Assembly (NCBI GenBank): GCA_965206595.1
Contig: OZ242214.1
Span: 2,208,001-2,272,000 of the forward strand
Reading direction: 5' to 3'
Origin: Candidatus Latescibacterota bacterium
GTDB lineage: Bacteria; Latescibacterota; UBA2968; UBA8231
Length of the DNA stretch: 64,000 bases
Under the pieces are notes generated by a model, which saw only the letters and a list, made by a program, of their open reading frames with translations, was not told the DNA's origin and ran no database searches. Position numbers and translations under genes: made by a program. The first letter of the stretch is position 1; the number at the start of each line of letters is the position of its first letter. This document shows positions 21,655 to 38,636 of this stretch, piece by piece.

Positions 21655-21714
21655 GTCGCTTCTCCCATGGGTTATCTACGAATCGTCTCGTATCAACTAC
21701 TCCCCTGATTCTTG

Positions 21715-22566
21715 GACCTATCTCAAAATTGAAATTGTTTAAGTAAAATCAAAATGGATGCAAGTTGGACGAAGCCAAGAAAATTCTCCGGATACAATTC
21801 CCAGCGAGTGATCACTCGACGCTGCCATTGAAGCCAAGCAAAGAATCTCTCAACCATCCAACGCCGCACATATCGCCGCAATCGCCGTCCATCCTGAGTC
21901 TTTTGCTTGCTCCGATTCTGGCGATGCGGGACGATCATCTCGATCCCGTCTTTCTTAAGCTCTTCATCCAACGAATCGCTGTCGTACGCTTTATCGCCGA
22001 TCAAGTTGTCAGGTTGGTCTTCGATCAAGTAAAAGTCAAAGGTCGACTGAACCAGCGTCACTTCATGATGGTTCGCTGCATGCGTGCTCACCGACAAGGG
22101 AAGCCCATTGCCGTCCACGATCCCCATGACCCGCACCCCCTTACCTCGCCTGGTGTGGCCGATATCGGCACCTCCACCCTTGGCCGCCGAGAACATGCCG
22201 TCGATGAAAGCCTCCGATTCGTCCAGGCCCCCTTGCTCGTGAAGGGTCTGGGCCAGGTCCATGAGAACTTCGCGCACCACCCCTTGACGACACCCGTTTT
22301 GAAAACGGCGATGCACGGTTTTGTAGTTCGGATAGCACGGCGGCAACATAGGCCATCGAGCCCCGGTGTTTAGAATCCAAAGAACGGCTGCAAAAACATC
22401 ACGCGTGCAAACCGGTTTGCGACCCGGATGGCTCTTGGGACGATTTTCTTCAGGAAAGTGATGGCGGATTCGTTGCCATTGCATGTCGGTCAGATTGACC
22501 ATACACCAATGGTACATCACTGTCATTTCGGAAACAAGTTTAAGTTTGCCTATTTTGAGATAGGTT
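21715..22566 (-). mobile_element. IS5 family element
   Basis: IRs (g/a)acctatctcaaaat; CTTG flanks both sides. Confidence 0.88.
21723..22502 (-). CDS. IS5 family transposase
   Basis: LTDMQW, TGARW..LP, FIDG, IGDKAYDS and RW.VERFFAW motifs. Confidence 0.9.
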   Translation of the reverse strand: MVNLTDMQWQRIRHHFPEENRPKSHPGRKPVCTRDVFAAVLWILNTGARWPMLPPCYPNYKTVHRRFQNGCRQGVVREVLMDLAQTLHEQGGLDESEAFIDGMFSAAKGGGADIGHTRRGKGVRVMGIVDGNGLPLSVSTHAANHHEVTLVQSTFDFYLIEDQPDNLIGDKAYDSDSLDEELKKDGIEMIVPHRQNRSKQKTQDGRRLRRYVRRWMVERFFAWLQWQRRVITRWELYPENFLGFVQLASILILLKQFQF

Positions 22567-22616
22567 CTTGCAAAAACGCCGACGAGCACCCTAGTCTCGG
22601 CTCCTGCAAGCTAAAA

Positions 22617-23030
22617 GTATAGGTAAAATGAGGCACCTTTTTGGACTCTTCGGTCAAGGCGCTGAGCGCACAGCGAGGATCGTTGCCAGTCCTTCGACCG
22701 AGCTCGCAGTACAGTTTGGTTGCCTGTCCGCCCGTATCCGGATCAATCCGGGGCCTGAGGGACCGTTGAGGGCACACCCAGCCGTACGCCCGGCGCCGGC
22801 CACGGGTCGAGAAGGCAGATCAGGCGGCGAACTCGAACGGCGGCTGCGGCGGGGCCCTGGCAGGGGCCAACGCCGGGGGCCGCGCCGGCAAACCGACCCC
22901 GGTCAAATAGCATCGGATCGAGGCCGGATCGGTCAGGGCGGTGAGGATCCTCAGGCGCCCGCCACAGGCCGCGCATTCGCTGAGGTCGGAGGAAAACACC
23001 CGCGCCAGCCACACGGAGGTCGCCATCGCC
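22617..23030 (-). mobile_element. IS91/ISCR-like 3' fragment D with oriIS-like end
   Basis: LARVFSSDLSECAACGGRLRIL...PPFEFAA stop, then a 3' region ending ATTTTACCTATAC. Confidence 0.8.
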
Positions 23031-23110
23031 GCTTGACCTCACAGATCTTGGTACTCCCGATGCGCAGGCGATGCACGGGATCCCGGAACACGGCGTTCCC
23101 GCAGGGTCAT

Positions 23111-24610
23111 TCAGACCGTGATCCGATCGGCCGTCCACGTGCCGGCATTCGCCAGGATGAAGTCGGGCTCCACGTACTGCTCGCGAAGAAGGTGCTCGTA
23201 TAGTCGGCCTTCGCTCACGCGATCGACCGGCGAGGTGTCGACGATACGGGTTGAAAGCGCTTCATCGAGCGCTTCGACAGTTCCGCTGCCCTCGTCGAAT
23301 TGCGCCTTCTTGCGCCACACAAGGTCCGCGGGCAGCAGGTCCTCGCAGGCCTTGCGCAGGATCCACTTCTCGGTCGTTTCGCTGGTTTGCTCGTCGACCA
23401 CGTTCATCTTCAACGATGCAGGGATCGACTGCGCAAAGTCGATGAGATCGCGATCGAGGAACGGCGTGCGCGCCTCCAGCCCCTGGGCCATGGTGATCCG
23501 GTCCACGCGCTGCAGATTGATGTTGTGCATGGCGCCGAGCGAGCGGGTGATCTCGTCCGCCAGGGCCCGCGGCCTGCGGGCATAGGCGTGGTGGTAGGTG
23601 TAGCCAGCGAAAAGCTCGTCCGCCCCTTCGCCCGTGAGCACCGCCTTGACATGACGGCGCGCCAAGGTGGTCGCGAAATGCGTCGGCATGGCGCTGCGCA
23701 CGAGATCGACGTCGGCGCTCTCGAGATGGTAGATCACGTGCGGCAGGGCTTCAGCGAGGTCGGCGGCGGTGAAGACGAGCTCGTGGTGGTCCGAGTCGAT
23801 ATGCGCGGCTACGGCGCGGGCGGCGGCGAGGTCGGGACTTTGCGCCGTGCCGACCGCGAAGGTCTTGAGCGGACGGTCGATGGCCCGCGCCGCCAGGGCT
23901 GCGATGACTGAGGAATCCAACCCGCCGGACAGGAAGGCACCGACCTCGACGTCGGCCACCATCCACTTGCGCACCGCCGCTTCGAGGACGAGCCGCAGCT
24001 CGCGCCAGATCGGTTCCGGATTCTCACCAGGCGCCAGCACGGCGGCGCCGTGCGGCATGCGGTACCACTCGCGAAAGCCATCGACGCTGTCGAACATGCC
24101 GCCGGGGTCGATGGTTTCGACCTCGTCCAGGCCAAGACCGTCGAACGCCTTCAACTCGGAAGCAAAGGCGAGGCCGTGGTCGATGCGCGCCATGAAGAGC
24201 GGCTTGATGCCGAGCGGGTCGCGCGCCGCAATGATCCGCTCCGGCGTGACCAGAACGAAGGCAAACATCCCGTCCAGCTTCGCGATCCACCGCAGTTCGT
24301 CGGACTGGAACAGATGCAGAATGGTCTCGCTGTCGCTTGACGTATGGAAGACGCTCTCGCCAAGGATCGCCCGCAAATCCGCGTGGTTGTAGATCTCTCC
24401 GTTGGCGACGAGCACGTTCTCGGCACTGTGGATTGGCTGGGCGCCGTCTTCGGGACCGATTATCGACAGCCGACAGTGGGCCATGACGGCCGGCACGTTC
24501 GGCGCATCGATCACACGCAGGTCGTCGGGCCCGCGGTGGGCGAGCTTCTCGATCATCCGACGCGCGAGCGAAGGATCATCGAGATTCCAAAGGCAGACAA
24601 AGCCACACAT
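23111..24610 (-). CDS. Asparagine synthetase B-like amidotransferase (glutamine-hydrolysing)
   Basis: MCG N-terminal Ntn cysteine, HRGPD, NGEIYN, RDPLGIKPL, LSGGLDSS and TGEGADELF motifs. Confidence 0.92.
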   Translation of the reverse strand: MCGFVCLWNLDDPSLARRMIEKLAHRGPDDLRVIDAPNVPAVMAHCRLSIIGPEDGAQPIHSAENVLVANGEIYNHADLRAILGESVFHTSSDSETILHLFQSDELRWIAKLDGMFAFVLVTPERIIAARDPLGIKPLFMARIDHGLAFASELKAFDGLGLDEVETIDPGGMFDSVDGFREWYRMPHGAAVLAPGENPEPIWRELRLVLEAAVRKWMVADVEVGAFLSGGLDSSVIAALAARAIDRPLKTFAVGTAQSPDLAAARAVAAHIDSDHHELVFTAADLAEALPHVIYHLESADVDLVRSAMPTHFATTLARRHVKAVLTGEGADELFAGYTYHHAYARRPRALADEITRSLGAMHNINLQRVDRITMAQGLEARTPFLDRDLIDFAQSIPASLKMNVVDEQTSETTEKWILRKACEDLLPADLVWRKKAQFDEGSGTVEALDEALSTRIVDTSPVDRVSEGRLYEHLLREQYVEPDFILANAGTWTADRITV

Positions 24611-24789
24611 TTCATTCCTCATCGGTTGCGTCGGAGTGCCTCGTCTCCGCCGACGGCGCACTTGTCCCCCGTGGACGGCATCGGGCGTAGCCGCACCCTG
24701 GATGGGGCCGGCATCCGACAGGGCGGGCTCGGGATTCACAGGTTCGGCGGCATCCGCCGCTCGGGATCGGTATCCGACGTCTGCCGGTG

Positions 24790-25659
24790 TCACCCTGCCA
24801 GCAGCGTGTCCAAGGAGACTTGCCGGGTATCGCCGGCTGGCCGCGACACGAAAAACTCCGCGTGTAGATGCCCCTCGGCTTCCTTGCCGGCTGGATCGAT
24901 GCCCCGCTCGCGAAGCCGCTGCAGCACCTGCTCGCGTTCGCGATCGCTGACGAAACGCCGCTGCTTGAATGTCTTGTCCTCCAGCTTCTCGGTGACATAT
25001 CCCCAATCGGACAGCGTTGCCTCAATGGGTTCGAACTCCCAGAGCCGAAGCACGAAGTTGGCCATCCAGGGCAGATCGCCCCTGGTCACGGTCGGCAGCA
25101 ACCGCTCGAAGGTCTTTTCCGTGACGTAGCCGATGCAGCCCGTCGAGGTCATCAGATCGATGTCAGCCAGCTCCGGCATTGCCGAATCGAGGAGCGGGCC
25201 AGCCTCCAGATTCGCGACCACTCCCTCGTCAATCAACCCGGTCTCCTCGGCAAAAGCGACCGCGCGTTCCGCCCGATCGAGGCCGATGACTTCGAAGCCG
25301 TGCGATTCTTCCCGATCGGCGAAGAATTGTCGGTCATGCTCCATGACCTCCTCCGGGCTCGCATCCTGCAGCCGGTCCTGGCCCCAGTGATCGTAGAGCT
25401 GGGGCATCGTCATGTCGTGCTTGAGAAGGGCTCCGTTCACGCCATACGAGCAGCCGAGATCCAGCACGCGTATGGACTTCTCACGCAAACGCTGCAGACG
25501 GGAAATCAGTTTGAGGAATAGGGGCTTGCTGGCGCTGGGGGTCGCGTAGTCGAGCTTGCGCAGCTCGGAATAGTAGGCCCTGGGGTCCGGCTGATTGTAG
25601 ATGTGGTCCAAGTTGGCTTTGGCACCATGGTGCTTATTTTCAGAATCGTCTACCGGCAT
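24790..25659 (-). CDS. Class I SAM-dependent methyltransferase-like protein
   Basis: VLDLGCSYG motif I, VIGLD, STGCIGY; AGGAG RBS. Confidence 0.75.
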   Translation of the reverse strand: MPVDDSENKHHGAKANLDHIYNQPDPRAYYSELRKLDYATPSASKPLFLKLISRLQRLREKSIRVLDLGCSYGVNGALLKHDMTMPQLYDHWGQDRLQDASPEEVMEHDRQFFADREESHGFEVIGLDRAERAVAFAEETGLIDEGVVANLEAGPLLDSAMPELADIDLMTSTGCIGYVTEKTFERLLPTVTRGDLPWMANFVLRLWEFEPIEATLSDWGYVTEKLEDKTFKQRRFVSDREREQVLQRLRERGIDPAGKEAEGHLHAEFFVSRPAGDTRQVSLDTLLAG

Positions 25660-25891
25660 CGTTTTCTCCTTTGCTGGTGGTCGGAGCGGGTGCAGACAGC
25701 CGGTGCCCGAGGAGGGACGCCTTCAGGACTAGCGGCATATCTGACCCACTATACCGATGCACCGTAACACACGGCCTCGACCGGATATCGGGAATCTTCG
25801 CAGTCGTCCCCGGTACCGGAAGGGCACCTGGAAGCGGCTCGGCATCCATTCTCTGATCGTTTCCGTCAGAAGACCGTGACGAGAGTATAGA

Positions 25892-26475
25892 GTATAGGTA
25901 AAATGAGGCACCTTTTTTGGACTCTCGGGTCAAGGCGCTGAGCGCACCGCTAGGGTCAGGCAGCTCCCTGAGGATCGTTTGCCAGTCCTTCGGCCGAGCT
26001 CGCAGTACAGTTTGGTTGCCTGTAGGCCCGTATCCGGGCGACGGCGACGGGTCGAGAAGGCAGGTCAGGCGGCGAACTCGAACAGCGGCTCAGGCGGGGC
26101 CCTCTGCGGGGGCATCGCCGGCAGCCCTACCCCCTCCAGATAGGTCCGGATCGAGGCCGGACCGGTCAGGGCGGCGAGGATTCTCAGGCGACCGCCACAG
26201 GCCGCGCATTCGCTGAGGTCGGAGGAAAACACCCGCGCCAGCAGGGTCGCCCAGCGCAGTCGATGGCCGCAGGACGCAGCGCTCGCCGAGCCGTCCGCCG
26301 CCGCCGGCTCGGCAACCGGCAGGGCCGGCACGATGCGGTCGCGGGCCCGGGCCCGGGGCGCCAGGACCCCGTGGTAGCGCAGGAGATGAAACCGGGGCGG
26401 GGGGACCAGAGCCGCCCGCTTCTCCAGCAGGTCCATCGGAGACAGCAGGAGATGGCGGGTCCCATCCGAGCCTGA
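25892..26475 (-). mobile_element. IS91/ISCR-like 3' fragment E (longest) with oriIS-like end
   Basis: SDGTRHLLLSPMDLLEK.AALVPPPRFHLLRYHGVLAP...FEFAA stop; ends ATTTTACCTATAC. Confidence 0.82.
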
Positions 26476-26842
26476 CCACCAGTTCGGCCAGCCGATCATA
26501 GTCGAGGTCGAACAGAGCAAAGAAGCGTTGGATGCGACGATAGTTTGATTTTCTATCGGCGTTTCCATTCAAGCCGTTGGCGATGCGAACCAGGTTTACC
26601 TTGGTCACCTGGATTAAGGCTAACACCCAGGCGGCGAGGAACTTGACCCGGGCTTTGTGCCATGGCAGGTGCCATTGCATCGCCGTGTATAAATCTGTAG
26701 TTTGAGGTGATATAGACCTGCTCTTGGTGATCGGGGAAACATGGACTTCGGCACGCCAAACTTAATCTCTTGTCAATTCAGGGGGGGGGTCTTTCTCGTT
26801 TTGTCGCGTAGCATGGGCAAAGACTGAAATTGTCGCGAGCTG
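26476..26842 (-). pseudogene. IS4 family transposase 5' fragment with possible left end
   Basis: WHKARVKFLAA..LAL...VNL..IA...SNYRRIQRFF; truncated by the ISCR-like fragment. Confidence 0.7.
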
Positions 26843-26851
26843 CGCTATCAA

Positions 26852-28711
26852 CCCTTGTTATTCATGGAATTTTAGTGGAGAGGGCTGTACTGGGTGCCTC
26901 CCATGCTTAGATTTCAGAGGGAAACACAAGGCAGTATCGCCCTTTGAACCCATCACACAGTAGGACACCCAATGGGTGAATTACCGTCACACACCGAGTC
27001 CGAGCAAGCCGGGCCGATTCAGCCGTCTTTCAACCGCTCCATCCACATCGAAGCCCGCCCCACCCACCTTGGCAGCGACACCGGTGCGCTGATGTTGCGT
27101 CAACTGCTCGAACACAGCCGGGTTCTGGATTGGGTCGACGCCCACTTCGAGGATCTCCGTACCCAAGACCAGATCACGCACCCGCTGCCGGAGCTGCTGC
27201 GCACACAGATCGTGCTGCTGGCACAGGGCTGGACCCACGCCGCCGACGCCGACGCGTTGCGCCAAGATCCGATCCTGCGTCTGGCGGTCAGCGATCGCAA
27301 AGGGCAGGCGCCGTTGCGCAGCGGCGACGAAGACCGGCCGCAGGGACTGGCCAGTCAGCCGACGCTGTCGCGCCTGCTCGAGCAAGCCTCGACTGCCTAT
27401 AACCGCGAGGTGTTGGAGGAAGCCGTCCTGCGCAGCGCCCGGTCTCGTTGCCGGCTGCTGGAAGGACGGATGAAATACGAGGAGTTGGCCGTCGACATGG
27501 ATGCCCTGCCGATGCCGGCGCACGGGCACCAGGCGGGGGTCGAATACAACGGCTACTTCCACGCCTCGGGGTACCATCCCCTGCTCCTCGGCTCGGCGCA
27601 GACGGGCGATTTCTTCGGTGCCGTGCTGCGGCCGGGCAACGTGCACGCCCATGAGGGCGCCTCAGAGGCTCTCGGCAAGCGCTTGGACTGGATTCAGTCG
27701 CATCTGGCCCGGCGCCTCATCCTGCGCTTCGACGCGGCCTCGGTGAGCGGGTCTTTCCTGAGTGAGCTGGAAGCGCGGGCCGACACCTCGTACGTGGCGC
27801 GCATCAAGAAGAATGCGCGCCTGGAGGAGCTGGCTCGTGCCTGGGTGGAAGGCTATCAGCAGGAGCTGGCGCAGCACCCGGAAGAGCTGCGGGAAGAGGG
27901 TTTTCGCTGTCGCGAGCTGCGCTATCAAGCCAGGTCCTGGGCGCAGCCCCGGCGGGTGGTGTTGGTCCTGGTCCCTTCCGAGACGGAAGAGCTGCCCATC
28001 GCCCGCCACTTCTTCCTGATCACCGACCAGAGTCCCCAGACGATGAGCGGCCGCGACCTGGTCGCCTTTTATCGTCAGCGCGGCCTTTTCGAGCGCATGC
28101 TCGGCGAGTTGAGCTCCACCCTCCAGCCTCAGCTCTCCTCTACCACCCGTCGCAAGCAACACTACCGGGGTCGAGAGCCGCGTCAGCGCACCCCGTCCCG
28201 GGATGCCTTCGCTGCCAACCAGGCGCTTCTGACCTTGAACCTGCTGGCCTACAACCTGCTTCACCTGGGCCGCCAGGCCGCCGAACGCGCCGAGGCCCGA
28301 CGCGGGCGGCCCCGCACATACGGACGCTCGACGACGGCCCTGAGCCTGGACAGTTTTCGACGGCGCTACCTGCGCCTGCCGTCCCGCGTCACCTTGCATG
28401 GGCGCAGGGTGGGCGTCATCCTGACCCAAGGGACGGCGGCTGCCTGGGATCGTCTGTGGAGATTTCTGGCCACGCTCAAACCGGTGGACGCGGCGATGGC
28501 GTAAGCGCAGGCCGGGTCGGTCGGGATGATGGGCTCGCAAAGGCAAGCGTCTTCGAGAAGGCGCGTACAATTTCAACAAGGTCGGTAGAGATAAGGAGAC
28601 GGCTCTACCCAAAAAGCCGACTATAGAAGGGACGCAAGCCTCTGAGGCTAAGCAAAGGGGTCTCGGAAGCGCCTATGTCCGCTTATGCGCGGGTTGAATG
28701 AATAACAAAGG
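26852..28711 (+). mobile_element. IS1380 family element
   Basis: IRs CC(C/T)TTGTTATTCAT at both ends; no clear target duplication. Confidence 0.8.
26972..28504 (+). CDS. IS1380 family transposase
   Basis: SDTGALML, LASQPTLSRL, VDMD, HGHQ.G..YNGYF...YHPL, LRPGN and FYRQRG..E motifs. Confidence 0.9.
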   Translation: MGELPSHTESEQAGPIQPSFNRSIHIEARPTHLGSDTGALMLRQLLEHSRVLDWVDAHFEDLRTQDQITHPLPELLRTQIVLLAQGWTHAADADALRQDPILRLAVSDRKGQAPLRSGDEDRPQGLASQPTLSRLLEQASTAYNREVLEEAVLRSARSRCRLLEGRMKYEELAVDMDALPMPAHGHQAGVEYNGYFHASGYHPLLLGSAQTGDFFGAVLRPGNVHAHEGASEALGKRLDWIQSHLARRLILRFDAASVSGSFLSELEARADTSYVARIKKNARLEELARAWVEGYQQELAQHPEELREEGFRCRELRYQARSWAQPRRVVLVLVPSETEELPIARHFFLITDQSPQTMSGRDLVAFYRQRGLFERMLGELSSTLQPQLSSTTRRKQHYRGREPRQRTPSRDAFAANQALLTLNLLAYNLLHLGRQAAERAEARRGRPRTYGRSTTALSLDSFRRRYLRLPSRVTLHGRRVGVILTQGTAAAWDRLWRFLATLKPVDAAMA

Positions 28712-28853
28712 TTGACAACAACCTCCGGTAGTCGTCGATCATTCCTTCCTTCCCCCCTGGCGGTTCCCCGATTCAAGGCACGCACTTCGGAGTTGGCAGG
28801 GTACGGTAAACTGATCGAGTGCTTCCCGCTGCTACCCCGCGAACCTGCCAAGG

Positions 28854-30974
28854 CTATTTCCGAAAGCCAATCTTTGGTCGGTGGTCCGGTTTGGCCCTGG
28901 ACTCGGCTTCCAGCAATTGTGCGAGTACCTTCGGGTCCTGCAGATGGCCGAGAATCTCCGCTTTTCGTCGAACCACTGCGAAATCCCCCGGGGTGAGGTT
29001 GGTCAGGGTTTCGACTTCAGCCGGAGCCTCGGACTCGAAGTAGTTACGAAACCCCGCCATGGACTGACTTGGGGTGAGATAGTCCAGGGCGATCTTGAAA
29101 GTGAATCGCCGCAGGGTTGCCGGGTCTAGGGTTTCCCCGAAGTTGGTTGTACACGCAAACGGCAGGGGATGGCTCTCCATCCAGGTCAGCATTTCGTTGA
29201 CCTGGCTGACCTCCCAGGAGCGCACGGCGCCGCGGCGGTCGGCGAGCAGGGAGTCGGCCTCGTCGAAGACGAGGATGGAGCCTTCGGCGCGCGCCTCTGC
29301 GAAGATGTCGGCGATATGCCGTTCGGTTTCTCCGACCCACATCGACATCAGGTCGGAAGCCCGCTTCTGGGTGACTTGGAGGCCGAGCCGCTCGGCAAGG
29401 TAGCGGACGAAGGCGCTCTTTCCTGATCCGGGCGGACCTTGCAGGCAGAGGGAGAATTGCTTTCCCCCGGTTTTTTCCAGGCGTTCGGCAAACCCGACAG
29501 GGTCGACATCGGCCCGGATCAGGGCGAGGTCGAACCTCTCTGGCGCCCCCTGATTTATGGCCGGCTTCTCTCCAGAAATCACCCGGGAAAGGCTTTGCAC
29601 GCCAAGGCGTACTGCAGTGAGGTCTCCACCGCAGAGGCTCGCCGCAGCAATGGCCCCGGAAGCAACGCCAGGTGCAACTTCGAACTCCTTTGCAAGAGAT
29701 TGACCATCCTCCTCGGTCGCTTCGATGCCGTGGCGCTCCAGCTCCCGGCTCCATATTCGCGCCCGGGTCCAGCGCGTGGGTCGCCGCAGCTCCAGGGCGA
29801 AAGTCATGCGCCGTAGAACCGTGGGACAGGTCTCCCTGGCCGAGTTCGTTGTCCAGAGCGTCGGCACCGGGGCGCGTTCGAGCAGCCTGTTCAGGTACAC
29901 CTTGGAGCCGCCCGACCGAAGCGGGGAAAAGCCGTGGGAGGAGAAGGGAATCCAACCATAACCCGGATTCGAGAGCAGGTCCTCCATCTCGTCGAAAAGC
30001 AGGATCGACCCACGGCCAGGTGCCAGCAAGTTCTGGGCGACCTGAAGCTCCTGGAGCCGTTCCCGCCGGCTTGGTTCCTCGCCCTCCCCGTCCGCTTCGC
30101 CCACACTGTAGAGGTTCGCCTGAACCCGGGCGGCAAGGGTTTTGCAGAACTCTGTCTTTCCGGTACCCGGCGGTCCGTACACCAGAACGTTAACCCCCTC
30201 GGCGCGGGAATTCAGGGCTCCCTTCAGCACCTTTTGGATGTGGTCCCGCTGCTCCGCGACATGGTCGAAGTCTTCCCACGCCAGCTCCTCCGGGGTTGCC
30301 CTATTGAGCAGCAGGTGGCGCACGTCGAGCCCGGCATCCGTGACGGTGACCAGCCGGTACAGCCGCTTGACGATTTCGATGTCTCCGTCGTCGTCTACCG
30401 ACACTAATCCGGACCTTACCAGAGGAGCATCGGGCGCCAATCGGGCGCGGAGAAAGCCAACCGATACGCCAAGGACCCGGGACAAAAAGGGAGTCGTAAC
30501 GTTGAAAAATCTTCTTCGGAGATGGCCTGAGCAGGATTCGTAAACAGACTCGACTAAATTTTCTATGACCGCCTGCGTACGACTTCGGATCCAAATCTCC
30601 AGAATCGCGACATCCTCGGGCTCGAAGTCCATCTCCCGGCCGAGCTGTCGAAGCCGCCTAGCCGCGAGGTCTTCCTGAACACCCTCGCCGGAAGACATCT
30701 TCGAATACAGGGTCTCAAGGGTCTTCAAAAGACGGTGCCAATCCTTCCTGGGGAGCTCTTTCTCGAGGTACTTCCCTGCCCGGATCTTGTACAGTTCCAG
30801 CTCTAACTCTTCATTATTCTCGCATTCCAGCCCCAGCAACTCGAGGTTTTCCATAACCCACTGAGTCAGGTTCCTTGCTTCCGGACTGGCGCGATGAATA
30901 CGTGAGGCAAGATTGCGAAGATAGAAAAGGAGACGCTTTTTTTCGTAGGCGTTGGGAGGTTCGTATACGAGCAT
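28854..30974 (-). CDS. Double-domain AAA+ ATPase
   Basis: Two P-loops (GPPGTGKT, GPPGSGKS), each with Walker B (LLFDE, LVFDE) and TTN sensor; ends in IGF. Confidence 0.92.
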   Translation of the reverse strand: MLVYEPPNAYEKKRLLFYLRNLASRIHRASPEARNLTQWVMENLELLGLECENNEELELELYKIRAGKYLEKELPRKDWHRLLKTLETLYSKMSSGEGVQEDLAARRLRQLGREMDFEPEDVAILEIWIRSRTQAVIENLVESVYESCSGHLRRRFFNVTTPFLSRVLGVSVGFLRARLAPDAPLVRSGLVSVDDDGDIEIVKRLYRLVTVTDAGLDVRHLLLNRATPEELAWEDFDHVAEQRDHIQKVLKGALNSRAEGVNVLVYGPPGTGKTEFCKTLAARVQANLYSVGEADGEGEEPSRRERLQELQVAQNLLAPGRGSILLFDEMEDLLSNPGYGWIPFSSHGFSPLRSGGSKVYLNRLLERAPVPTLWTTNSARETCPTVLRRMTFALELRRPTRWTRARIWSRELERHGIEATEEDGQSLAKEFEVAPGVASGAIAAASLCGGDLTAVRLGVQSLSRVISGEKPAINQGAPERFDLALIRADVDPVGFAERLEKTGGKQFSLCLQGPPGSGKSAFVRYLAERLGLQVTQKRASDLMSMWVGETERHIADIFAEARAEGSILVFDEADSLLADRRGAVRSWEVSQVNEMLTWMESHPLPFACTTNFGETLDPATLRRFTFKIALDYLTPSQSMAGFRNYFESEAPAEVETLTNLTPGDFAVVRRKAEILGHLQDPKVLAQLLEAESRAKPDHRPKIGFRK

Positions 30975-31027
30975 GATTTCTCCGGATTTTGCGTGTTGGG
31001 GTTACCCCACGAAACCCTCACCTGAGG

Positions 31028-31432
31028 TTACGGTTGGTAGGGTTTTTCGTCGATAGTGAAGGAGGCTTCGGGCAGGTGAACAGCCAGGCGTTGGTGTAGT
31101 TCTTCTATCACTTTTCTTGTGAGACCGAACCCCACCGGGTTGCCCAAGGTAGAGGTGATTTCGACCGCTATGCCGGCGGGCACATCTCTTACGAACAGCG
31201 TAATGTTCAGGTTCACATCGTGGGATGCGGTAGCCTTTTTGGCCGCGATCAGGCCGGTGTTTTTGTCGGTGTTGATTACTTCGAGATCCGTTTCAACGAC
31301 CGCTTGCAGAACCCGGTCGAAGACGGTGTCGGAAGCTCCGCCGGCGATGAGGGCTTGTCCCTTCGTGGTAACCGACGTGCAACCGTAGAGTAGAATGGGC
31401 AGCAGAATGATGATGTAGTTGATTTTTTTCAC
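31028..31432 (-). CDS. Lipoprotein of unknown function
   Basis: MKK, hydrophobic stretch and lipobox LYGC; GGAGG RBS before GTG. Confidence 0.85.
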   Translation of the reverse strand: MKKINYIIILLPILLYGCTSVTTKGQALIAGGASDTVFDRVLQAVVETDLEVINTDKNTGLIAAKKATASHDVNLNITLFVRDVPAGIAVEITSTLGNPVGFGLTRKVIEELHQRLAVHLPEASFTIDEKPYQP

Positions 31433-31511
31433 GAGGCCTCCTGTGGTTTGTGATATGCCGGACGGTCCTGTCCTGCGAGCCTCCGCTATCGGAGACGGAT
31501 ACGCATTGATA

Positions 31512-31545
31512 AACCTACCACGGGGGTGCGACAGATCATGTCGCG
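31512..31545 (-). promoter_or_regulatory. WYL-box promoter 1 (CGAC-N7-GTCG palindrome plus TAGGTT -10)
   Basis: aacctaccacgggggTGCGACAGATCATGTCGCg; 80 nt upstream of the lipoprotein start. Confidence 0.75.
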
Positions 31546-31745
31546 GGACTGAACTTTTTTGAGCAGCCTTCTAAGCCGAAACGGCGGGGGGAAGGAGGAT
31601 GCCCGTCGTCGAGGCTACGGCGCTGAGGGCTTTACTGGTGGGGGGGTTGCCCGGGGGCTGGGTTCCTTGCCCACGGGCAACGTGAGCAAGCCCTTGAGCA
31701 TAATGAGAAAGCAATGTCTCCCGTTCTCTTTGAACCCCCGGGCCC

Positions 31746-32523
31746 TCAGCCTCGGCTATTCACCTGGTCGCGCCAGGACACTGGTACGCGCATGCGGTCC
31801 CCGTTCTTGCTGTCGAAGAGCAGGAACCCTTTGTCGTGGCCGTGGCGGAATAGATCGCGAGTGAGCTGGACATCCTGCCGGCAGTACTCCTCGATGAGGT
31901 CGAGACGGCCCTGTTTCCACCAGTGCAGGGGCCTGAAGACCGTCGCCCGTTTTCACAGCGTTGAAGGTCGCTGCTGCCAGGCTGTCGAGGCTGACGCGGT
32001 AGTTCAGGTACGCGTGCACTTCGCGCAGGATGTCGAGGGTTTTCAGTTTGCGGAAGTCGTAGCGCGAGTAACCGCGCAACACCCTGTAGTCGAAGCCGAT
32101 GACGTTGAAACCGACTACGAGGTCGGCTCTCCGCAGCAAGCCGATCAGCTCATCTATCTGATCTTCGAAATAGGTGATGAAACGGGCCTCGCGGCTGTCC
32201 CAGGCGACACCGCAGGACACGCGCATAAGGCTCACATTGTTCCAGCCGCCCACCTCGTCGGCGCTGAGCTGGGTTTCGAGATCGAAGACCACCACGTGCG
32301 CACCCTCAACTGCCTCGAAGCGTCTCTCTCCTCGCCGGTGTCCATTCCGGAACTGCCAGTCCGGTAAGAAGGGAGGATCTTCTTCGATACCGCTCGCCGC
32401 GAGCCATTCGTTTTCGAGGGTGGGGGGCTCGGTAGGTATCTCGAGCAGGTGGATGTGGCCGCCCTTATCGTGGGGGCGATTACCGAGGCTGTGGCGTTGG
32501 GTGGGTTCCTTCTTGGTGGGCAT
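31746..32523 (-). CDS. RNase H-like 3'-5' exonuclease (RNase_H_2/YprB-like) with apparent +1 frameshift near 31930
   Basis: VFDLETQ, VGFNVIGFD, K.GDGLQA and EYCRQDV motifs. Confidence 0.82.
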
Positions 32524-32562
32524 GTCGCGCCTCCGGGGGATGGGTCGTGTGTGCAACCGGTG

Positions 32563-32596
32563 AACCTACCCCGGGGGTGCGACGGATCATGTCGCA
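32563..32596 (-). promoter_or_regulatory. WYL-box promoter 2
   Basis: aacctaccccgggggTGCGACGGATCATGTCGCA; 40 nt upstream of the exonuclease ATG; contains the upstream gene's TGA. Confidence 0.75.
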
Positions 32597-33450
32597 GGTG
32601 TCACATTAGTGCTCGGCGTCCTCTTCCGGGCCGGAAATCTCCCGGCCAGCGCTTTGCGGAAGTCGGCCACGAACCAGCGAACTTGCTCGGCTTTCACTCC
32701 ATCTTCTGCCCGCCTCAGCCAACCATTAGCCCATTCTCGGACCGATGCGTTGGCGAGCTGGCCTTTCTCCGCAAGCTCCTTGCGTTCCTCGCATGGAATA
32801 CTGTTCGGGGCAGGGTCTGTTGCATACGGGGTGAGGTAGATGAGCATGAAGTCCTCGCCATACCTCTCATGAAGCTCTTTGGCGTAAGCGCTGACCTGGT
32901 TGTCCAGGTCAGACGCGCCCATGGCCTTGCTCTCAATCCCAATCCCCACCGGCTCCGCCTTTCCCTCGACACGCATGGAGATCACGATATCGATCCTTTT
33001 CGAGGGGTCGATGTGAGTAGTCCGCGCTTCCCAGTAGACTTGCACATGTGACCAAGTAGAACCGTCCGGAAGAATCCGCTTCATTGCCGACTGCGTCTTT
33101 TGGTTCTCTCGCAAGTGGTTCAGAAAAGCGGTCAGAAACAGATCCTGTTGCCCGTGAGGTCCATCGGGATCGAGGAGGTAGGCGAATACATAGGACATCC
33201 GTTCCTCGGCTTTGATAGATTTGAAAAGGGCGATGGCGTAAAAATAGTTGAACTTCCTGGCCAAGTGGCGGTCAAGCTCAATTACGACTGGCCTTAGAAT
33301 GTCAAGACCTTGCCTAGCCCCATAGAAGAACCTCGGAGTCTCTCGTTTTAGCTTGGTAAGGCGGGGTTCCTGCAAACCTTTCAAAACTCTTTGGGCACCT
33401 TCGAAAAATCGTGGGATCTCTTGGTCGAAACTCGTGCCGCCCACTTTCAC
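32587..33450 (-). CDS. PD-(D/E)XK nuclease family protein (PDDEXK_4-like)
   Basis: E..MS...AYLLDP.G.HG, RIDIVI, IGIESK...D..NQ..AY and IYLTP motifs; GTGA overlap with the upstream gene. Confidence 0.85.
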   Translation of the reverse strand: MKVGGTSFDQEIPRFFEGAQRVLKGLQEPRLTKLKRETPRFFYGARQGLDILRPVVIELDRHLARKFNYFYAIALFKSIKAEERMSYVFAYLLDPDGPHGQQDLFLTAFLNHLRENQKTQSAMKRILPDGSTWSHVQVYWEARTTHIDPSKRIDIVISMRVEGKAEPVGIGIESKAMGASDLDNQVSAYAKELHERYGEDFMLIYLTPYATDPAPNSIPCEERKELAEKGQLANASVREWANGWLRRAEDGVKAEQVRWFVADFRKALAGRFPARKRTPSTNVTPAT

Positions 33451-34031
33451 TTCTCCAATCCCTTCGAAATGATCTCCGTGGAAAGGATCAATAACCTTGC
33501 AAATTCGTCGATCTTCTCGTTGTCGTGATGCAGCGTGCTTATGTCTCCCTTGTATCCCTTGGGATAGAACCACCAGAGCCATTCATAATACTTCTTAGGA
33601 TCGCTTTCTAGTTTCACGCCCTCAACCAGGAAACAAGAATCGAGAAGATCTTTATGTGGACATTCTGTGTTTGCTGAAGGTATTCCTACCCAAAAATCAT
33701 ATTTCTCATCCTTCTCACCACATTTCTGGAAAGCACAGACAAGGTGAATTTGGATCTCTCGCTTCTCCATGTTCATTTTGTAGATCGGTTTCTCTATACC
33801 CGACGACCCTTTTTCGAGAGAGACCTTTTGAACGTCTGATTTCCAAGGACGGTCGCTCTCCTTAAGTTTTTTCTCGACACTCTCTTTTAATTTCTTTACA
33901 AACGAAAGCAAGATTTTTTCCCGTAGTTCAATTTGCAACTGACCGATTGCAAGCGCGATTTCGGTATTGTCTTTGGTCTCTATGCAGTAACACACCAGCC
34001 AGTTTTTCTCTTCATCTGTAAATTCTTTCAT
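33447..34031 (-). CDS. Hypothetical protein coupled to the PD-(D/E)XK gene
   Basis: 194-aa low-GC ORF whose stop overlaps the next start. Confidence 0.7.
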   Translation of the reverse strand: MKEFTDEEKNWLVCYCIETKDNTEIALAIGQLQIELREKILLSFVKKLKESVEKKLKESDRPWKSDVQKVSLEKGSSGIEKPIYKMNMEKREIQIHLVCAFQKCGEKDEKYDFWVGIPSANTECPHKDLLDSCFLVEGVKLESDPKKYYEWLWWFYPKGYKGDISTLHHDNEKIDEFARLLILSTEIISKGLEK

Positions 34032-34077
34032 CTCTCTGTCCTTGTGTGAACCCCGTGGGGTAAGTGGCTACTCTACG

Positions 34078-34208
34078 GTAACCGTTCAGTTCCCTGGCAG
34101 CTTGGGGCCCGGGGGGCGGAATGGTTGCGGGCTGATATTAGCGAATGGCGGAGTGGGTTGAAGGCAGCAGCGAGGGCTCTGGCTGCTGAGACACGGCAGC
34201 CTGACAGG
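34078..34208 (-). mobile_element. IS66 end remnant of the same family as 16768..19862
   Basis: gtaaccgttcagttccctggcag... closely matches 16768-16898. Confidence 0.88.
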
Positions 34209-34705
34209 GCGACGGCGTTCACCAACTGTTCATGACGTTCGAACCGGATTTGCTCCGAAGCTACGGGTACGGTGTCCGTGTCCCTTCGCTGCAGGCATCG
34301 CCCGTCACTGGTAAGATGGATGTATCGAGTTCCTTTTTGCACGTCGAAGACCAGAACGGTCTCGTCCCTTACCGGTACCAGACGGGTTCTGACTCCGGGC
34401 AACGGAGTGTCCGCGTGGACATGGGTTTGGGGGGCGTTCCGTAGCACTTCCAGTTTGTCGTCCGCGTATTCGACCCCGGATACTGTCCCGTCGTCCTCGG
34501 CCCCGACGATCAACGTCCCTCCATCCGCATTGGCGAATGACACGAGAGTCTCGCCGATGTCTCTGGCTACCAGGCTCACCTGCCGCCGGCGCTTCCGTTC
34601 AGGTCCTTCGAGAGCGCTCTTGAACTCCCGGAAGTGACTTTCGCCAAGTGTGAGGTCATTCTCCAGGCGTTCCTGAACCAACAGTATCCGTGGGTCGCTG
34701 CTCAT
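34209..34705 (-). pseudogene. Schlafen/AlbA_2 domain protein, 3'-truncated by the IS66 remnant
   Basis: GESHFREFKS and SFANADGGTLIVGAEDDG motifs. Confidence 0.82.
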
Positions 34706-34819
34706 GTTCCGGGTCTTTCACTACCTGTATCGGCAGGATTTCCTGAGAAATGGCCAGGATTCTTCACTTGTTTGTTGACCACAGGGTCTTTGGTAGAGGC
34801 GTCTGGATCACCTTTATCA

Positions 34820-35752
34820 TCATGCCTCGGGCCCGGGTGAGCCCTTTGAAAAGATGTAGCCACCGAAACGGTTCTTCGCCTCGTCGACTTTGTGAATCCC
34901 TTGGTCGTACAGACCGTATCCGAAGAAGCTCGCCGTTGCGATGCGCAGGTCGGCCTTAGGACTGTCGGGGAGGGTGTCGAGCAAATCACGAAGTTTCGAA
35001 CTTTCAGGATCGTGGTTTGCTAACACCAGTAGAAGAATCGGCCTCTCTTCGCTGAAGCTACATAGATCCCTTTTACATTCGATGAGTTCCAAGCCTTGTT
35101 TCTGGTTGAAGACATTTACCATGTCCTCCTTCAAGTTCTCCACTTTGTCAGGATCTTCAAGATATTTGTTCACATCCCTAATGTGATTGTGGAGCCCCGC
35201 GGTGCCGGTCAGCGCGCCATCTCCGTGTTTCATCTCAACAAGAACGAGTCGCCGACCGTTTTCTTTCATACGCTCCGCCGTCGTCGATGGCCAGTGCACC
35301 GCAATCATGTCGAACCGCCCATTCTCGCTGGTGTATTCAATGTCGCAGATGTAGTAGTCCGTGGAATTTGCAATGCTCCCGAAGTTGTTGTCCCGCACGA
35401 TGAGTTGCTGGAACTCGCGTTCGTCCACTCGATGCTTTCCGAAATAGCGATCCATCGCCTGCTTGAGCATGGGCGACACCTTCAGCCATTTTTCGACGTC
35501 ATCCTTCTTTCGAATATCGCCGGCTGGGAGGCATTTAACCTTTCCGTATTCCTGATCGAAGAAGACGGTGTACTCCTTTGGGGATTTCTTCCCGACCTTC
35601 ATCAGACTACCACCCCGGTAGTAGATGTTGATTGACTTCCCCCTCAATTCAAGACAGAGGCTTGTGTCTGATCGAACCATCTTCGTCAGGTCAGCCAACA
35701 CTCCATCTTCGTCCTTCAGATCATTCAGAAAATCGCAATCAAGCCTGCGCAT
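34820..35752 (-). CDS. Hypothetical protein with PD-(D/E)XK-like motifs
   Basis: EREFQQ...DIEY...RFDMIAV...LVEMK pattern; N-terminal LELRG..INIYYRGG. Confidence 0.65.
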   Translation of the reverse strand: MRRLDCDFLNDLKDEDGVLADLTKMVRSDTSLCLELRGKSINIYYRGGSLMKVGKKSPKEYTVFFDQEYGKVKCLPAGDIRKKDDVEKWLKVSPMLKQAMDRYFGKHRVDEREFQQLIVRDNNFGSIANSTDYYICDIEYTSENGRFDMIAVHWPSTTAERMKENGRRLVLVEMKHGDGALTGTAGLHNHIRDVNKYLEDPDKVENLKEDMVNVFNQKQGLELIECKRDLCSFSEERPILLLVLANHDPESSKLRDLLDTLPDSPKADLRIATASFFGYGLYDQGIHKVDEAKNRFGGYIFSKGSPGPEA

Positions 35753-35779
35753 CTTTCCCTCCGTATTTGGTTTTAAGTT

Positions 35780-37027
35780 TTAGACATCCCACCAGACGCC
35801 GTCCTCCTGCAGAACGACATTGTCGAAAAACTCCGCGAACCGCCCCGTTTCGAACGAGTGGATGGGCACCAGCCGCCGCGGGGCGAGGGCGGCGGCGAAG
35901 CGTGCCAGGTCGGTCACCGAAGCATGCCCGGAGGTGTGAACGACCTGCCAGGGAATTCCTTTGTCTTCGAGCCAATTCGTGACTATCTGCGTGCTTCTCT
36001 CCTTCAAATAACCCTCCCACATTGAATAGGTGAGCCCGGCGCCGTCGAGCACTCCCCGAACGCCGTGATCCCTCATCATCATGGGGCGGAAGAGCATGAC
36101 GGCTCGTCCGCCCAGGCCGCGCAGGTCCTGCGGGAATATCCGGTTCGCTTTGTGCCGTCCGAGATCGTCGAACCGCTTTTCGTTCTTGATCAACACCCGC
36201 TGCCTGTACGGGATATAGAGATGCACCCCATCCCAATGAGACTGCGGGATGGTGTCCCTTCCCGTCCCTTCGAGGACCAAGGCGGCATAGAGATCGATGA
36301 GCAAGGCGCGGCCCGTCTGCCTGGCGGCGCGAAAGATCGTCACCATCCGGTCGATGTTCTGCGGTGAGGTCCAGACGAAGTGAAGGCCCTTCGTCTCCTT
36401 GAAAACCTTGACGAACTCCTTCTCAAGGTCGGTCTCGGTGGGGAACCCCTCGCTCCTCCCCGTCCTTCCGATCGTCGTTCCTTCCATCAGGAGAACGTCG
36501 ATCTCCCCGGGCGGACGTTCGATCACCGCCCCGATCAGCGATGCCTTGCGGCCGTGCGCGCGGAAGTCCCCGGAGTAGTAGACCCGCCTGCCGCCGGCCT
36601 CGACGAGCAGGGCGTAGGCGTCGAAGGCGCTGTGATCGACGAGATGGGGCGTGATGCGAAACGGGCCGATCTCCACCGGCGTCTCGTGAGAGATGAAACG
36701 AGGATTGTCGAAATCGTGGCCGTTCCGTACGAAGGGGCTTGCGGCCTTGAGAATGTTGTGTGCTGCCTCTCCGATGTAGACCGGGACCTCCGGGCGGATG
36801 TTTCGCGCCAGACCGTAGTGGTCCTGATGGGGATGCGAGATTACGACCCCCAGCAGGCTGTCGTCCGGTTCCCGGAAACCGGAAACCTGGGGAAGCAGAA
36901 TTTTGTGTTCTTCCTCGGGCGCGTCCAGGGGCAGGCCGACGTCGAGCACGACGCGCTTTCCTTGCACCTCGATCTCGATACAGGTGCCGCCGATCTCCTT
37001 GGTCCCCCGATGGATGCAAATTCTCAA
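35780..37027 (-). CDS. MBL-fold, RNase J-like (beta-CASP) hydrolase
   Basis: EIGGTCIE, SHPHQDH, VDHS, SGDFR.HG, HTSGHA and PIHS motifs. Confidence 0.9.
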   Translation of the reverse strand: MRICIHRGTKEIGGTCIEIEVQGKRVVLDVGLPLDAPEEEHKILLPQVSGFREPDDSLLGVVISHPHQDHYGLARNIRPEVPVYIGEAAHNILKAASPFVRNGHDFDNPRFISHETPVEIGPFRITPHLVDHSAFDAYALLVEAGGRRVYYSGDFRAHGRKASLIGAVIERPPGEIDVLLMEGTTIGRTGRSEGFPTETDLEKEFVKVFKETKGLHFVWTSPQNIDRMVTIFRAARQTGRALLIDLYAALVLEGTGRDTIPQSHWDGVHLYIPYRQRVLIKNEKRFDDLGRHKANRIFPQDLRGLGGRAVMLFRPMMMRDHGVRGVLDGAGLTYSMWEGYLKERSTQIVTNWLEDKGIPWQVVHTSGHASVTDLARFAAALAPRRLVPIHSFETGRFAEFFDNVVLQEDGVWWDV

Positions 37028-37151
37028 AATTAGTTTTCTCGCATGGATGAATGAATGAAATCAGGACTCCATCACGGGATCGATTTATGAGGAAATACGC
37101 CCCGAGTGACCTCCCCTTAGGAAGAGAAATCCGCTATGTCGGAGTTTCAAA

Positions 37152-37610
37152 TCAGCTTGATGATTCATGATCTTCCCGTTCATGCAGCGGCAACCGACCG
37201 ATCTCCCGTGGCCACGCCAAATTGGCGAGAAATTCCGGATCCTCGAAAAAAAATTCTCGCACCGTTGCTAGGAGTTCCTTATCGGCGTCTGCGACTTCGA
37301 GCTTACCCTCGGAGACGGCGAAAGTCTGTGAGTCTACCCAAAACAGAGTGTCGAGCGGAAAGTATCCAACTCTTCGGTCAATCAGGCCTATTAAAAGGTA
37401 CAGGGCTTCGTAAGTTGATGGGGTGATCCGGACATCTTCCAAGACGATATTGCCGTCCTCACCATAGGAGGAATCGGACAATTTAAACACAATGAGGGCC
37501 TCATCTACCGCCGGTTCGACTTCCGCTCTCTGCTCTTGTTGGCCCCTCGGCTCCTCTGGATCTTCGCAGACTACATGGCAAGCTACGGTAAAATAAATGC
37601 TGGTACACAT
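37152..37610 (-). CDS. Hypothetical acidic protein
   Basis: 152-aa ORF with AAGGAG RBS directly downstream of WYL-box 3. Confidence 0.6.
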   Translation of the reverse strand: MCTSIYFTVACHVVCEDPEEPRGQQEQRAEVEPAVDEALIVFKLSDSSYGEDGNIVLEDVRITPSTYEALYLLIGLIDRRVGYFPLDTLFWVDSQTFAVSEGKLEVADADKELLATVREFFFEDPEFLANLAWPREIGRLPLHEREDHESSS

Positions 37611-37637
37611 CTGATAGCTCCTTTATGGTAGGAGAGG

Positions 37638-37671
37638 AACCTATCAAATTGATGCGACAGATCATGTCGCA
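37638..37671 (-). promoter_or_regulatory. WYL-box promoter 3
   Basis: aacctatcaaattgaTGCGACAGATCATGTCGCA; perfect 7-bp arms; contains the WYL gene's TGA. Confidence 0.78.
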
Positions 37672-38636
37672 CCCCCGGCATCCAGCCCCAGAGCCGCCCG
37701 CATCTCCGCCCGGACCGCCTCCCGCAGCTCTTCCGGCCCCAGCACCTCGGCCGCGGCCCCGAAGCTCAGCACCCAACTCCTGATCTCGTAGAACCCGCCT
37801 GCCCGCAGCCGCAGCACCACCCGCCCGTCCGGCAGCTCCTCCAGCTCCTGGCTGGGGTGCCAGATCCTTTCCCTTATATATGGGGCCTGTTCCTCCGTAA
37901 ACCGGACCGCCACCTCCATCGGCTCCTCGTACGAAACCCCGAAAGCATCGCTCACCCGCTCGTCGATCGGCAGGTGGTCCGGCGGCTCGAACGTCTCCCC
38001 CGTTTCCTCTACCGCCTCGAAGCGCTCCACTGCCTGTGTGATCAGGCTGTCGTAGTAAGGCACCCGGGAGATCACGTACAGCCCGCCCCGGTAGTGCAGG
38101 AGGCGCAGCGGTTCGATCTCGTACTTCCTTGCGTTCTCCGCCGCGGGGGAGCGGTAACTCACCCGGCAGACGCGGCGCTCGAGAATGGCATCGTGCAGTT
38201 TCTCGAGCAGTTCCCGGGCCTCCTCGTACGGCTTGTGCCCGCGTGCCAGCGGCACGTAGGCCTCGGCGGCCCGCTCGAAGAATCGCCGCCCCTCTTGGGG
38301 CATCGTCTCGGTCAGCCTGCGAACGGCCGAGCGCAGATGCTCTCCGAACGGGGTTCCCACCAGCCCCAGGCCGGCTCGCTCGGCGAAGATCATGGCCGCG
38401 ACCTCCATGACCGGAAAGTTCAGCGGCATCCCGGTCTCCTTCAGCAACTGGTAGTAGACGCGACTGTTGCGGCGTTTTTCCCCCAGTATGAACCCAGCCT
38501 CGCGCAGGTCATTCAGGTCTCGTTGCACGGTGCGCACAGTTACATCGTATTCATCCGCAAGCTGGTGTACGGTCATACCGTAGCGCCGGGCCTGCAGAGT
38601 CCGCAGGATGTCGAGCTGCCTAACAATCTGTCTCAT
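37662..38636 (-). CDS. HTH-WYL-WCX transcriptional regulator (PafB/DriD-like)
   Basis: wHTH LADEYDVTVRTVQRDLNDL; WYL region IEPLRLLHYRGGLYV; WCX region WHPSQ...WVLSFGAAAEVLGPEELR. Confidence 0.93.
   Translation of the reverse strand: MRQIVRQLDILRTLQARRYGMTVHQLADEYDVTVRTVQRDLNDLREAGFILGEKRRNSRVYYQLLKETGMPLNFPVMEVAAMIFAERAGLGLVGTPFGEHLRSAVRRLTETMPQEGRRFFERAAEAYVPLARGHKPYEEARELLEKLHDAILERRVCRVSYRSPAAENARKYEIEPLRLLHYRGGLYVISRVPYYDSLITQAVERFEAVEETGETFEPPDHLPIDERVSDAFGVSYEEPMEVAVRFTEEQAPYIRERIWHPSQELEELPDGRVVLRLRAGGFYEIRSWVLSFGAAAEVLGPEELREAVRAEMRAALGLDAGGAT

Follow-up and report, generated by a model that had tools for sequence, protein, structure and literature searches.

A WYL-regulator island with three copies of a putative DriD/DdaA-type promoter in a Candidatus Latescibacterota genome

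The stretch of DNA analysed here, hereafter the window, covers 64,000 nucleotides of a Candidatus Latescibacterota genome (contig OZ242214.1, positions 2,208,001 to 2,272,000), and within it lies a gene island that begins with a regulator of the WYL family and carries three copies of a 34-bp element. The regulator gene (37662..38636, minus strand) encodes a protein of 324 residues with wHTH (winged helix-turn-helix), WYL, and WCX domains (Pfam HTH_11, WYL, and WCX), as an earlier note on this DNA had called it, and this protein is the presumed cognate activator of the element. On the minus strand, which is also that of every island gene, the three copies read (T/C)GCGACATGATC(T/C)GTCGCA-N9-TAGGTT, this being a 19-bp palindromic operator, a nine-nucleotide spacer (N9), and a -10 box. 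Copy 1 spans 37638..37671 (operator 37653-37671, -10 box 37638-37643), copy 2 spans 32563..32596 (operator 32578-32596, -10 box 32563-32568), and copy 3, which has an upstream A-tract, spans 31512..31545 (operator 31527-31545, -10 box 31512-31517). The gaps between -10 box and start codon are 27, 39, and 79 nt, respectively, and transcription from copy 1 would be predicted to start near 37631. While the positions and shared orientation of the three elements bear out the earlier note, the 7-bp palindrome arms it described are perfect only in copy 1, with six of seven positions pairing in copies 2 and 3. The evidence set out below makes it highly probable, in our view, that the element serves as a sigma-70 promoter of DriD/DdaA type, dependent on an activator, and that the WYL protein of the island reads it.

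Following copy 1, and all on the minus strand, are a 152-residue lipoprotein (37152..37610), an RNase J-like metallo-beta-lactamase (MBL) hydrolase of 415 residues with an intact HxHxDH motif (35780..37027), a 310-residue protein without a Pfam family (34820..35752), a truncated Schlafen AlbA_2 gene (34209..34705; Pfam PF04326), a 194-residue protein (33447..34031), and a PDDEXK_4 nuclease (32587..33453). The lipoprotein is a diverged member (36-43% identity) of a family, F0, with short collagen-like repeats and no Pfam match, and this family is the commonest first gene after the motif, following 17 of the 83 distinct copies found in relatives. AlbA_2 is cut by a 134-bp repeat (34076..34208) that has about 20 further genome copies and resembles the terminal part of an insertion sequence (IS), presumably an IS66-like one. 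Weak similarity to the C-terminal part of PADLOC PDC-S26 (E 2e-4) was seen for the 194-residue protein, whose gene in relatives usually comes first behind the copy at the WYL gene end, and the PDDEXK_4 nuclease resembles the N-terminal part of PDC-S26. The start of the latter is uncertain, and its frame enters copy 2 and ends at a TGA within the operator. Copy 2 is normally the promoter of a gene pair encoding a ClpP-like protease and a WHD-AAA ATPase, and across 123 nt it shares 88% identity with a relative's clpP module (G012).

Behind copy 2 comes a chimeric, frameshifted open reading frame (31756..32523, minus strand) that joins about 14 clpP-like codons to the 3' 718 bp of a host-gene homolog. 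This 3' part is 81% identical at the nucleotide level to a 1103-residue host gene that is DEAD-box helicase-like by reading, and an RNase_H_2-like domain was detected at E 0.003, which is below the cut-off. Contigs of one run (X1) carry an extra base near 31928 that a contig of another run (X4) lacks; a sequencing error was rejected as the cause of this frameshift, the X1 contigs being identical there, and X1 may be the source sample. Copy 3 is followed by a probable lipoprotein of 134 residues (31028..31432, minus strand), with a signal-like N-terminus ending in LYGC by reading and no family match, and then by a double-AAA ATPase of 706 residues (28854..30974, minus strand). The latter is a recurrent island member (phrog_10401) with an 84% identical paralog in the genome (G000 4745352-4743367). 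An IS1380-family element on the plus strand (26848..28713), with many near-identical genome copies, bounds the island and lies outside the regulon. Thus, of the genes named in the earlier note, the RNase J-like hydrolase, the PDDEXK_4 nuclease, and the double-AAA ATPase stand, while the 'exonuclease' is the frameshifted clpP/RNase_H_2 chimera. With AlbA truncated as well, the gene set is better described as a shuffled and partly decayed sample of modules than as the one coherent system first proposed. In each module, a single promoter would be expected to drive every gene up to the next copy, which for copy 1 means roughly 5 kb, from the MBL to the PDDEXK_4 gene.

In the 7.05-Mb genome, the pattern GCGAC-N7-GTCGC-N10-TAnnnT, a scan for which had been suggested beforehand, occurs three times and always within the island, against about 0.16 occurrences expected from word frequencies. 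The 19-mer operator is found five times at zero to one mismatch and six times at up to two mismatches (about 0.0003 expected), and a genome scan with the arms and the -10 box returned four strong sites only. The statement that the element does not occur outside the island therefore holds for the window but not for the genome, where three further copies were located. Of these, the one at 4740865 has an in-register -10 box and lies ahead of a DnaB gene, and those at 4742427 and 3945323 have a -10-like hexamer 3 nt farther away and lie ahead of clpP remnants. As these copies are 1.7 and 2.5 Mb away, the description of the regulon as self-contained is not supported. The bare core GCGAC-N7-GTCGC is not enriched genome-wide (44 strand-hits versus about 61 expected), and so significance is limited to the long element. 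As a search pattern, the bare DriD core was discarded as uninformative at 64% G+C, with many matches being intragenic, and a scan of the 64-kb window at up to one mismatch gave 10 matches, a number reached in 12 of 100 shuffles. A consensus promoter scan found no ordinary promoter and no -35 hexamer at the expected place for any copy, and the window gave no Rfam match to a structured RNA at gathering thresholds. We also rejected the idea that Dam methylation accounts for the GATC at the centre, there being two weak D12 matches (E ~3e-4, in long frames) and an observed/expected ratio of 0.97 for GATC.

Additional copies were collected from relatives, meaning other Ca. Latescibacterota genomes, by searching for both arms plus GATC at up to one mismatch, which biases the apparent conservation of the core but not that of the -10 box. 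Of the 49 island copies, 39 have nAnnnT at N9, corresponding to 28 of 37 distinct right flanks. By comparison, N10 and N12 gave 10 of 49 each and the remaining nine spacings 0-2 of 49, with the reverse side giving 1 of 48 at N9. A larger set, drawn from 24 genomes, comprises 83 distinct copies, of which 67 have A(-11) and T(-7) at N9 and 50 the fuller TAnnnT. Since the N9 spacers are unrelated between copies at the WYL gene end and internal ones, the -10 box is not merely carried along. By our alignment, the DriD promoter sequences given in the methods section of PMC13004042 likewise have a half-site, N9, and then CAATCT or CAAGGT, and the register of the window elements is that of DriD promoters. 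The same source reports that the DriD site covers the -35 position and that its distance to the -10 is fixed (PMC13004042).

As for the protein, its best matches in the protein data bank are DriD over the full length (E 2e-11), which makes DriD a distant homolog only. Residues Arg35, Thr36, and Arg39 of the WYL protein align with Arg37, Thr38, and Arg41 of DriD and are invariant in 16 of 16 homologs. Within the same 16 homologs, Tyr161, Tyr187, and Arg205 are invariant, and Arg170 is also kept with respect to DriD, so that among the DriD pocket residues Tyr168, Arg176, Arg178, Tyr192, Arg204, and Arg207, the WYL protein retains three (as Tyr161, Arg170, and Tyr187). Motif and regulator also travel together. 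Across 168 genomes of the phylum, the exact motif is present in 26, a close WYL protein (about 70% identity or more; three are partial or broken) in 25, and both in 23 by hand count, and each of these 23 has a motif copy outside the WYL gene end. No motif was found in the 30 genomes with only distant WYL matches, and a reversed-pattern control across the phylum genomes gave none. Within one genus of 31 genomes, motif and WYL gene are both present in 15 and both absent in 13, with three discordant. With regard to cultured close relatives of the WYL protein, plasmid matches were only 25-33% identical, and a search of representatives added no context.

One of the operators is placed inside the regulator gene itself. 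The last codons and stop of the WYL gene (GGT GCG ACA TGA) form the left half of the operator in copy 1, and this overlap with the stop codon is common to 14 loci, though absent in some genomes (e.g., G020 and G151). At these ends, the codon before the alanine is GGT in 12 of 14 cases versus 2 of 91 other glycine codons, the alanine codon is GCG in all 14 versus 82 of 138 elsewhere, and an Ala-Thr C-terminus is found in 48 of 61 close WYL homologs. At the codon level, the tail of the gene thus appears to be under constraint at synonymous sites. Moreover, a sister WYL clade (44-51% identity; loci L010-L021 and L167-L176) has a different palindrome 7 nt past the stop codon, followed by N9-TAnnnT, in 8 of 11 parsed loci, with two further loci not parsed. 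This palindrome is duplicated in gene clusters of two of the five genomes searched (G044 and G037), and the upstream flanks of the duplicates resemble the WYL 3' end. In other loci, we noticed a WYL gene duplicated within its island along with part of its upstream region (L069: 10001-10978 and 18804-19781) and a second copy of just the WYL 3' end, operator included (L074). Separately, seven loci of genus g19 (L027, L029, L030, L032, L033, L039, and L040) share a conserved perfect palindrome with the same arms and a different core, located about 150 nt upstream of a membrane-protein-like gene of about 456 residues, with a -10-like hexamer one base nearer.

DriD of Caulobacter crescentus binds ATACGAC-N7-GTCGTAT (PMC10853764), and its core CGAC-N7-GTCG is fitted by all three window copies. 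As with DriD, the site in these copies occupies the -35 position, its distance to the -10 is constant, and a consensus -35 is lacking; in addition, the recognition-helix arginines Arg37 and Arg41 are kept as Arg35 and Arg39. The DriD operator, however, lies in the regulator's own upstream divergent promoter rather than in its 3' end (PMC9186387, PMC10853764, PMC13004042), and DriD targets didA, recJ, dnaG, and recA, the targets here being island cargo. The closest published motif is CGWCA-N5-TGWCG of DdaA from Moraxellaceae (PMC12392091), to which copies 1 and 3 correspond exactly and copy 2 with one mismatch. DdaA and the window protein also share an Arg-to-Ala change in the pocket, and the tyrosines of the latter match the two of DdaA that were tested for damage sensing. 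DdaA activates defence genes (PMC12392091, PMC13010146), and its paper describes it as a putative regulator of neighbouring genes at a stage before it turned global (PMC12392091). Unlike the present regulon, it took the place of SOS and has recA, ssb, and uvrA under its control. For ddaA homologs, local regulons in their vicinity have already been proposed (PMC12392091), and Supplementary Fig. S4B of that paper may show similar layouts. SiwR of Mycobacterium smegmatis is, as we propose for the window protein, a homodimeric WYL activator of adjacent genes, with a 19-bp imperfect palindrome upstream of the -10, but differs in controlling one operon of DinB-like genes and in needing both pocket arginines (PMC10693628). 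Repeated promoter copies are a feature of the island, with none described for SiwR in the part of its report available to us (PMC10693628). PafBC of mycobacteria resembles the proposed window system as a Class A WYL activator that responds to single-stranded DNA (ssDNA) and has a promoter element near -26; it is, however, a heterodimer with a non-palindromic site and a global regulon, and it needs RNA polymerase to bind (PMC6789036, PMC11804915). In contrast, the window system consists of a single gene and a palindrome. The promoter consensus of PafBC is TGTCGG. Thus, where a DriD/PafBC-like activator had been proposed, the DriD half agrees with register, core, and arginines, while PafBC departs in subunit make-up and site symmetry.

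A global replacement of SOS by this regulon was considered and rejected, as LexA is present in the genome, recA and lexA have no sites, and strong sites number four genome-wide. Specifically, no in-register site was found upstream of recA or lexA, with other repair genes not checked singly. From the sequence, the regulon appears to comprise local, island-bound modules rather than core SOS genes. On contig G000:C1, GAAC-N4-RTTC palindromes, which we take to be similar to Gram-positive-type SOS boxes, stand beside TTGACA upstream of recA (~3624850) and lexA (~164960), with none in the stretch read for the second recA copy. The only other gene of the genome with a WYL domain (G000:C1:2975609-2976695; L002) is 0.73 Mb away and has two GGACA-N5-TGTCC palindromes upstream that are unlike the island motif. 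Sites of this kind also lie at 3036173, 3458638, 6324615, and 6326409, which points to another WYL regulon distinct from that of the island. A WYL-family remnant (G000:C1:2643825-2644019; 53% over 82 residues) is situated inside another defence-like cluster.

On the basis of the DriD register, the kept -10 box, the co-occurrence of motif and WYL gene, and the conserved recognition-helix residues, we favour the activator-dependent promoter, and its operation may be envisaged as follows. A WYL dimer would bind the 19-bp palindrome at the -35 position and recruit RNA polymerase to the -10 box that lies nine nucleotides downstream. The WYL protein itself is probably made constitutively and switched by its ligand, because there is no operator upstream of its gene and in several relatives the gene, which is found behind differing host genes, starts 13 nt past the stop codon of the host gene. 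By homology, this ligand would most likely be ssDNA arising from damage or from incoming DNA, and the protein would control local modules of the defence island. With one operator inside the regulator's own 3' end and pointing outward, genes landing behind this tail promoter would come under WYL control, and duplicates of the promoter head other modules. Ordinary recombination between such short direct repeats could then reshuffle, delete, and scatter the modules.

Several points weigh against this reading. First, the DriD pocket residues Arg178, Arg204, Trp206, and Arg207 are replaced in the WYL protein by Tyr, Ile, Gln, and Ala, and an R204A-R207A mutant of SiwR loses activation (PMC10693628); hence, the ligand may differ from ssDNA. 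Sensing of ssDNA, which the earlier note had written into its account, is accordingly retained here as a best guess, based on homology. Second, DriD prefers an AT-rich spacer, and the spacer in the window is not AT-rich. Third, the central RYGATCY is kept beyond what DriD would need, although this conservation is partly built into the search. Moreover, an in-register -10 box is absent in 16 of the 83 distinct copies, and three of the 26 motif genomes have no close WYL match. As the relatives are kin and many copies are of common descent, the counts are also not independent. Lastly, several target genes are broken in the window, and part of the regulon may thus be decaying.

The modules behind motif copies differ between genomes, and the cargo of relatives' islands adds DnaB, ClpP with WHD-AAA, type III restriction-modification (R-M), TIR, AbiE, REase-ARP, ADP-ribosylglycohydrolase, and toxin-antitoxin (TA) genes, which identifies the islands as defence islands. 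In one relative (L054:11446-14168), an intact pair of ClpP-like protease and WHD-AAA ATPase stands under the motif; this protease-ATPase module recurs in islands, mostly as remnants. In the window genome, the copies at 4740865 and 4742427 sit in a block with DnaB and a clpP remnant. Over 2.5 kb, this block shares 92.8% identity with a portion of the one island present in a sister genome (G001) and so constitutes a separated piece of the same island, and the copy at 3945323 falls in an 84% identical copy of part of this block. Given the dispersed blocks here and the single island in G001, the island has been broken up in this IS-rich genome. As side observations, the region 14000-28700 of the window is dense with IS remnants (IS1380, Y2-transposase fragments, and others) and has TA pairs at 20400-21700. 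At the corresponding locus of G002 from the same genus (L197), the flanking cupin gene is followed by a DUF4377-type lipoprotein and a TonB-receptor-like gene with no WYL gene and no motif, this being an empty or reduced site. The notion of a prophage or satellite remnant was rejected, as the window has no integrase and its PHROGs matches are to generic ATPase, hydrolase, ClpP, DnaB, and collagen-repeat proteins. An integrase does lie 10 kb from the second locus, with IS elements in between.

Such shuffling raises the alternative that the palindrome doubles as a site-specific recombination site and the island as an integron-like cassette array served by a recombinase in trans, which we judge to be unlikely. 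In keeping with it, homology with G001 (3028 bp, 94%) stops at the final base of the operator, 37653; within clusters, the copies point the same way; and the asymmetric RYGATCY core occurs in nearly all of them, subject to the search bias mentioned. Furthermore, copy 1 appears to combine the left flank of a WYL-end copy with a lipoprotein-type right flank, and since genes of the lipoprotein family are usually preceded by an internal copy, it has the look of a crossover between two copies; a second such chimera is found in L189, and both keep the spacing. Relative to the operator, most long intergenomic alignments have their ends at offsets 14-40 and their starts at -21 to +3, and neighbours differ in 95% of comparisons at 44 motif junctions versus 62% at 39 motif-free ones, a comparison confounded by operon boundaries, which break more often than junctions within operons. 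Yet these breakpoints, while clustering at the promoter, spread over about 60 bp instead of falling at a single position, in a contig from run X6 the WYL end is followed by AlbA with no operator between them, and the sister clade has a different core. A search for tyrosine recombinases, which did not extend to serine ones, found none in the window and one weak 54-residue match in 35 island loci. Recombination alone leaves the fixed-spacing -10 box unexplained. Homologous exchange between repeated promoters would seem a better fit than site-specific recombination. A partial precedent is provided by the PeSL cassettes of T4-like phages, in which repeated promoters head variable modules and recombination shuffles the genes (PMC2839356), though these are strong constitutive phage promoters with terminator stem-loops, unlike the putatively activator-dependent, chromosomal copies described here.

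A somewhat less likely alternative still is that the WYL protein acts as a repressor of the BrxR/CapW kind, which a phage or damage signal would release. The operator covers the -35 position and could block polymerase, the cargo is defence-like (PDDEXK_4 here; type III R-M, TIR, AbiE, and TA genes in relatives), and WYL repressors of defence systems have been described. However, with neither a -35 hexamer nor an ordinary promoter at the copies, there would be little to repress, the spacing is the activating register of DriD, and the best structural relative of the full-length wHTH-WYL-WCX protein is DriD. Unlike BrxR and CapW, moreover, there is no operator upstream of the WYL gene and no consensus promoter at the copies, and a repressor of that type is probably not what the gene encodes. 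Finally, it seems very improbable that repeated duplication left the copies behind as relics with no function, or that another regulator reads them. The IS-rich genome, the several broken island genes, the displaced -10 in two of six genome copies, and the three motif genomes without a close WYL match speak for this, but the arms and A(-11)/T(-7) persist despite complete divergence of spacers and flanks, there is synonymous-site constraint within the WYL gene, and motif and WYL subfamily track each other within the genus of 31 genomes.

Independent of the WYL motif, the MBL gene and the gene for the 310-residue protein form a pair of interest. A model of the latter (pLDDT 94) shows a probable YjbR/frataxin-like N-terminus and a probable PD-(D/E)XK nuclease domain, in which Asp148 and Glu173-x-Lys175 are invariant. 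Structural matches were modest and all below Z 8 (NucS, Z 7.0; YdhG, Z 6.6; YjbR, Z 6.3). Foldseek with this model returned nothing at E ≤ 0.001, the Atlas gave unnamed clusters only, and no plasmid homolog was found. The two genes are adjacent, in either order, in 48 of 80 metagenome loci and in 38 of the 59 with room on both sides, and one fusion is listed (P0080). An MBL gene directly upstream of the 310-residue gene was discarded as the usual order (3 of 68 loci with room), the partner being mostly downstream. PADLOC gave no match for either gene, and for the 10 proteins searched its library, dated 2023, gave only the partial PDC-S26 and generic AAA (IetA) matches. We thus regard the pair as a candidate for a widespread, conserved two-gene defence system. 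Our literature search, which did not cover supplements and most subscription papers, turned up no account of WYL regulons in Latescibacterota, of a WYL promoter encoded in the gene's tail, or of an MBL/nuclease pair, with the term matches in PMC10853773 and PMC12839542 being spurious only.

Beyond what had been read from this DNA before, our analysis adds the operator encoded in the regulator's tail (14 loci) and the copies that head genome-variable modules. In a wider and quite tentative picture, these would make the island an integron-like platform without an integrase. The WYL gene would land behind host genes, its tail promoter would point outward and be inducible by stress, the copies would serve both as switches and as crossover points for swapping defence modules, and the MBL/YjbR-PD-(D/E)XK pair may be an undescribed defence system.

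While the core mechanism has already been published, the island, on the promoter reading favoured above, extends activation of the DriD/DdaA type to an uncultured phylum. The window would then present a local regulon, confined to an island, of the sort that in the DdaA paper's proposal is ancestral to global WYL regulons. In practice, the motif is a marker that picks out variable islands of one family in 26 of 168 genomes, and it names the genes that would be switched directly (lipoproteins, double-AAA ATPase, DnaB, ClpP/WHD-AAA, and PDDEXK_4), all of them candidates for defence screens. If the promoter copies do drive the shuffling, defence islands would have a simple means of acquiring genes that arrive connected to a danger sensor, and if the platform picture is true, newly acquired genes would at once come under nucleic-acid-triggered control.

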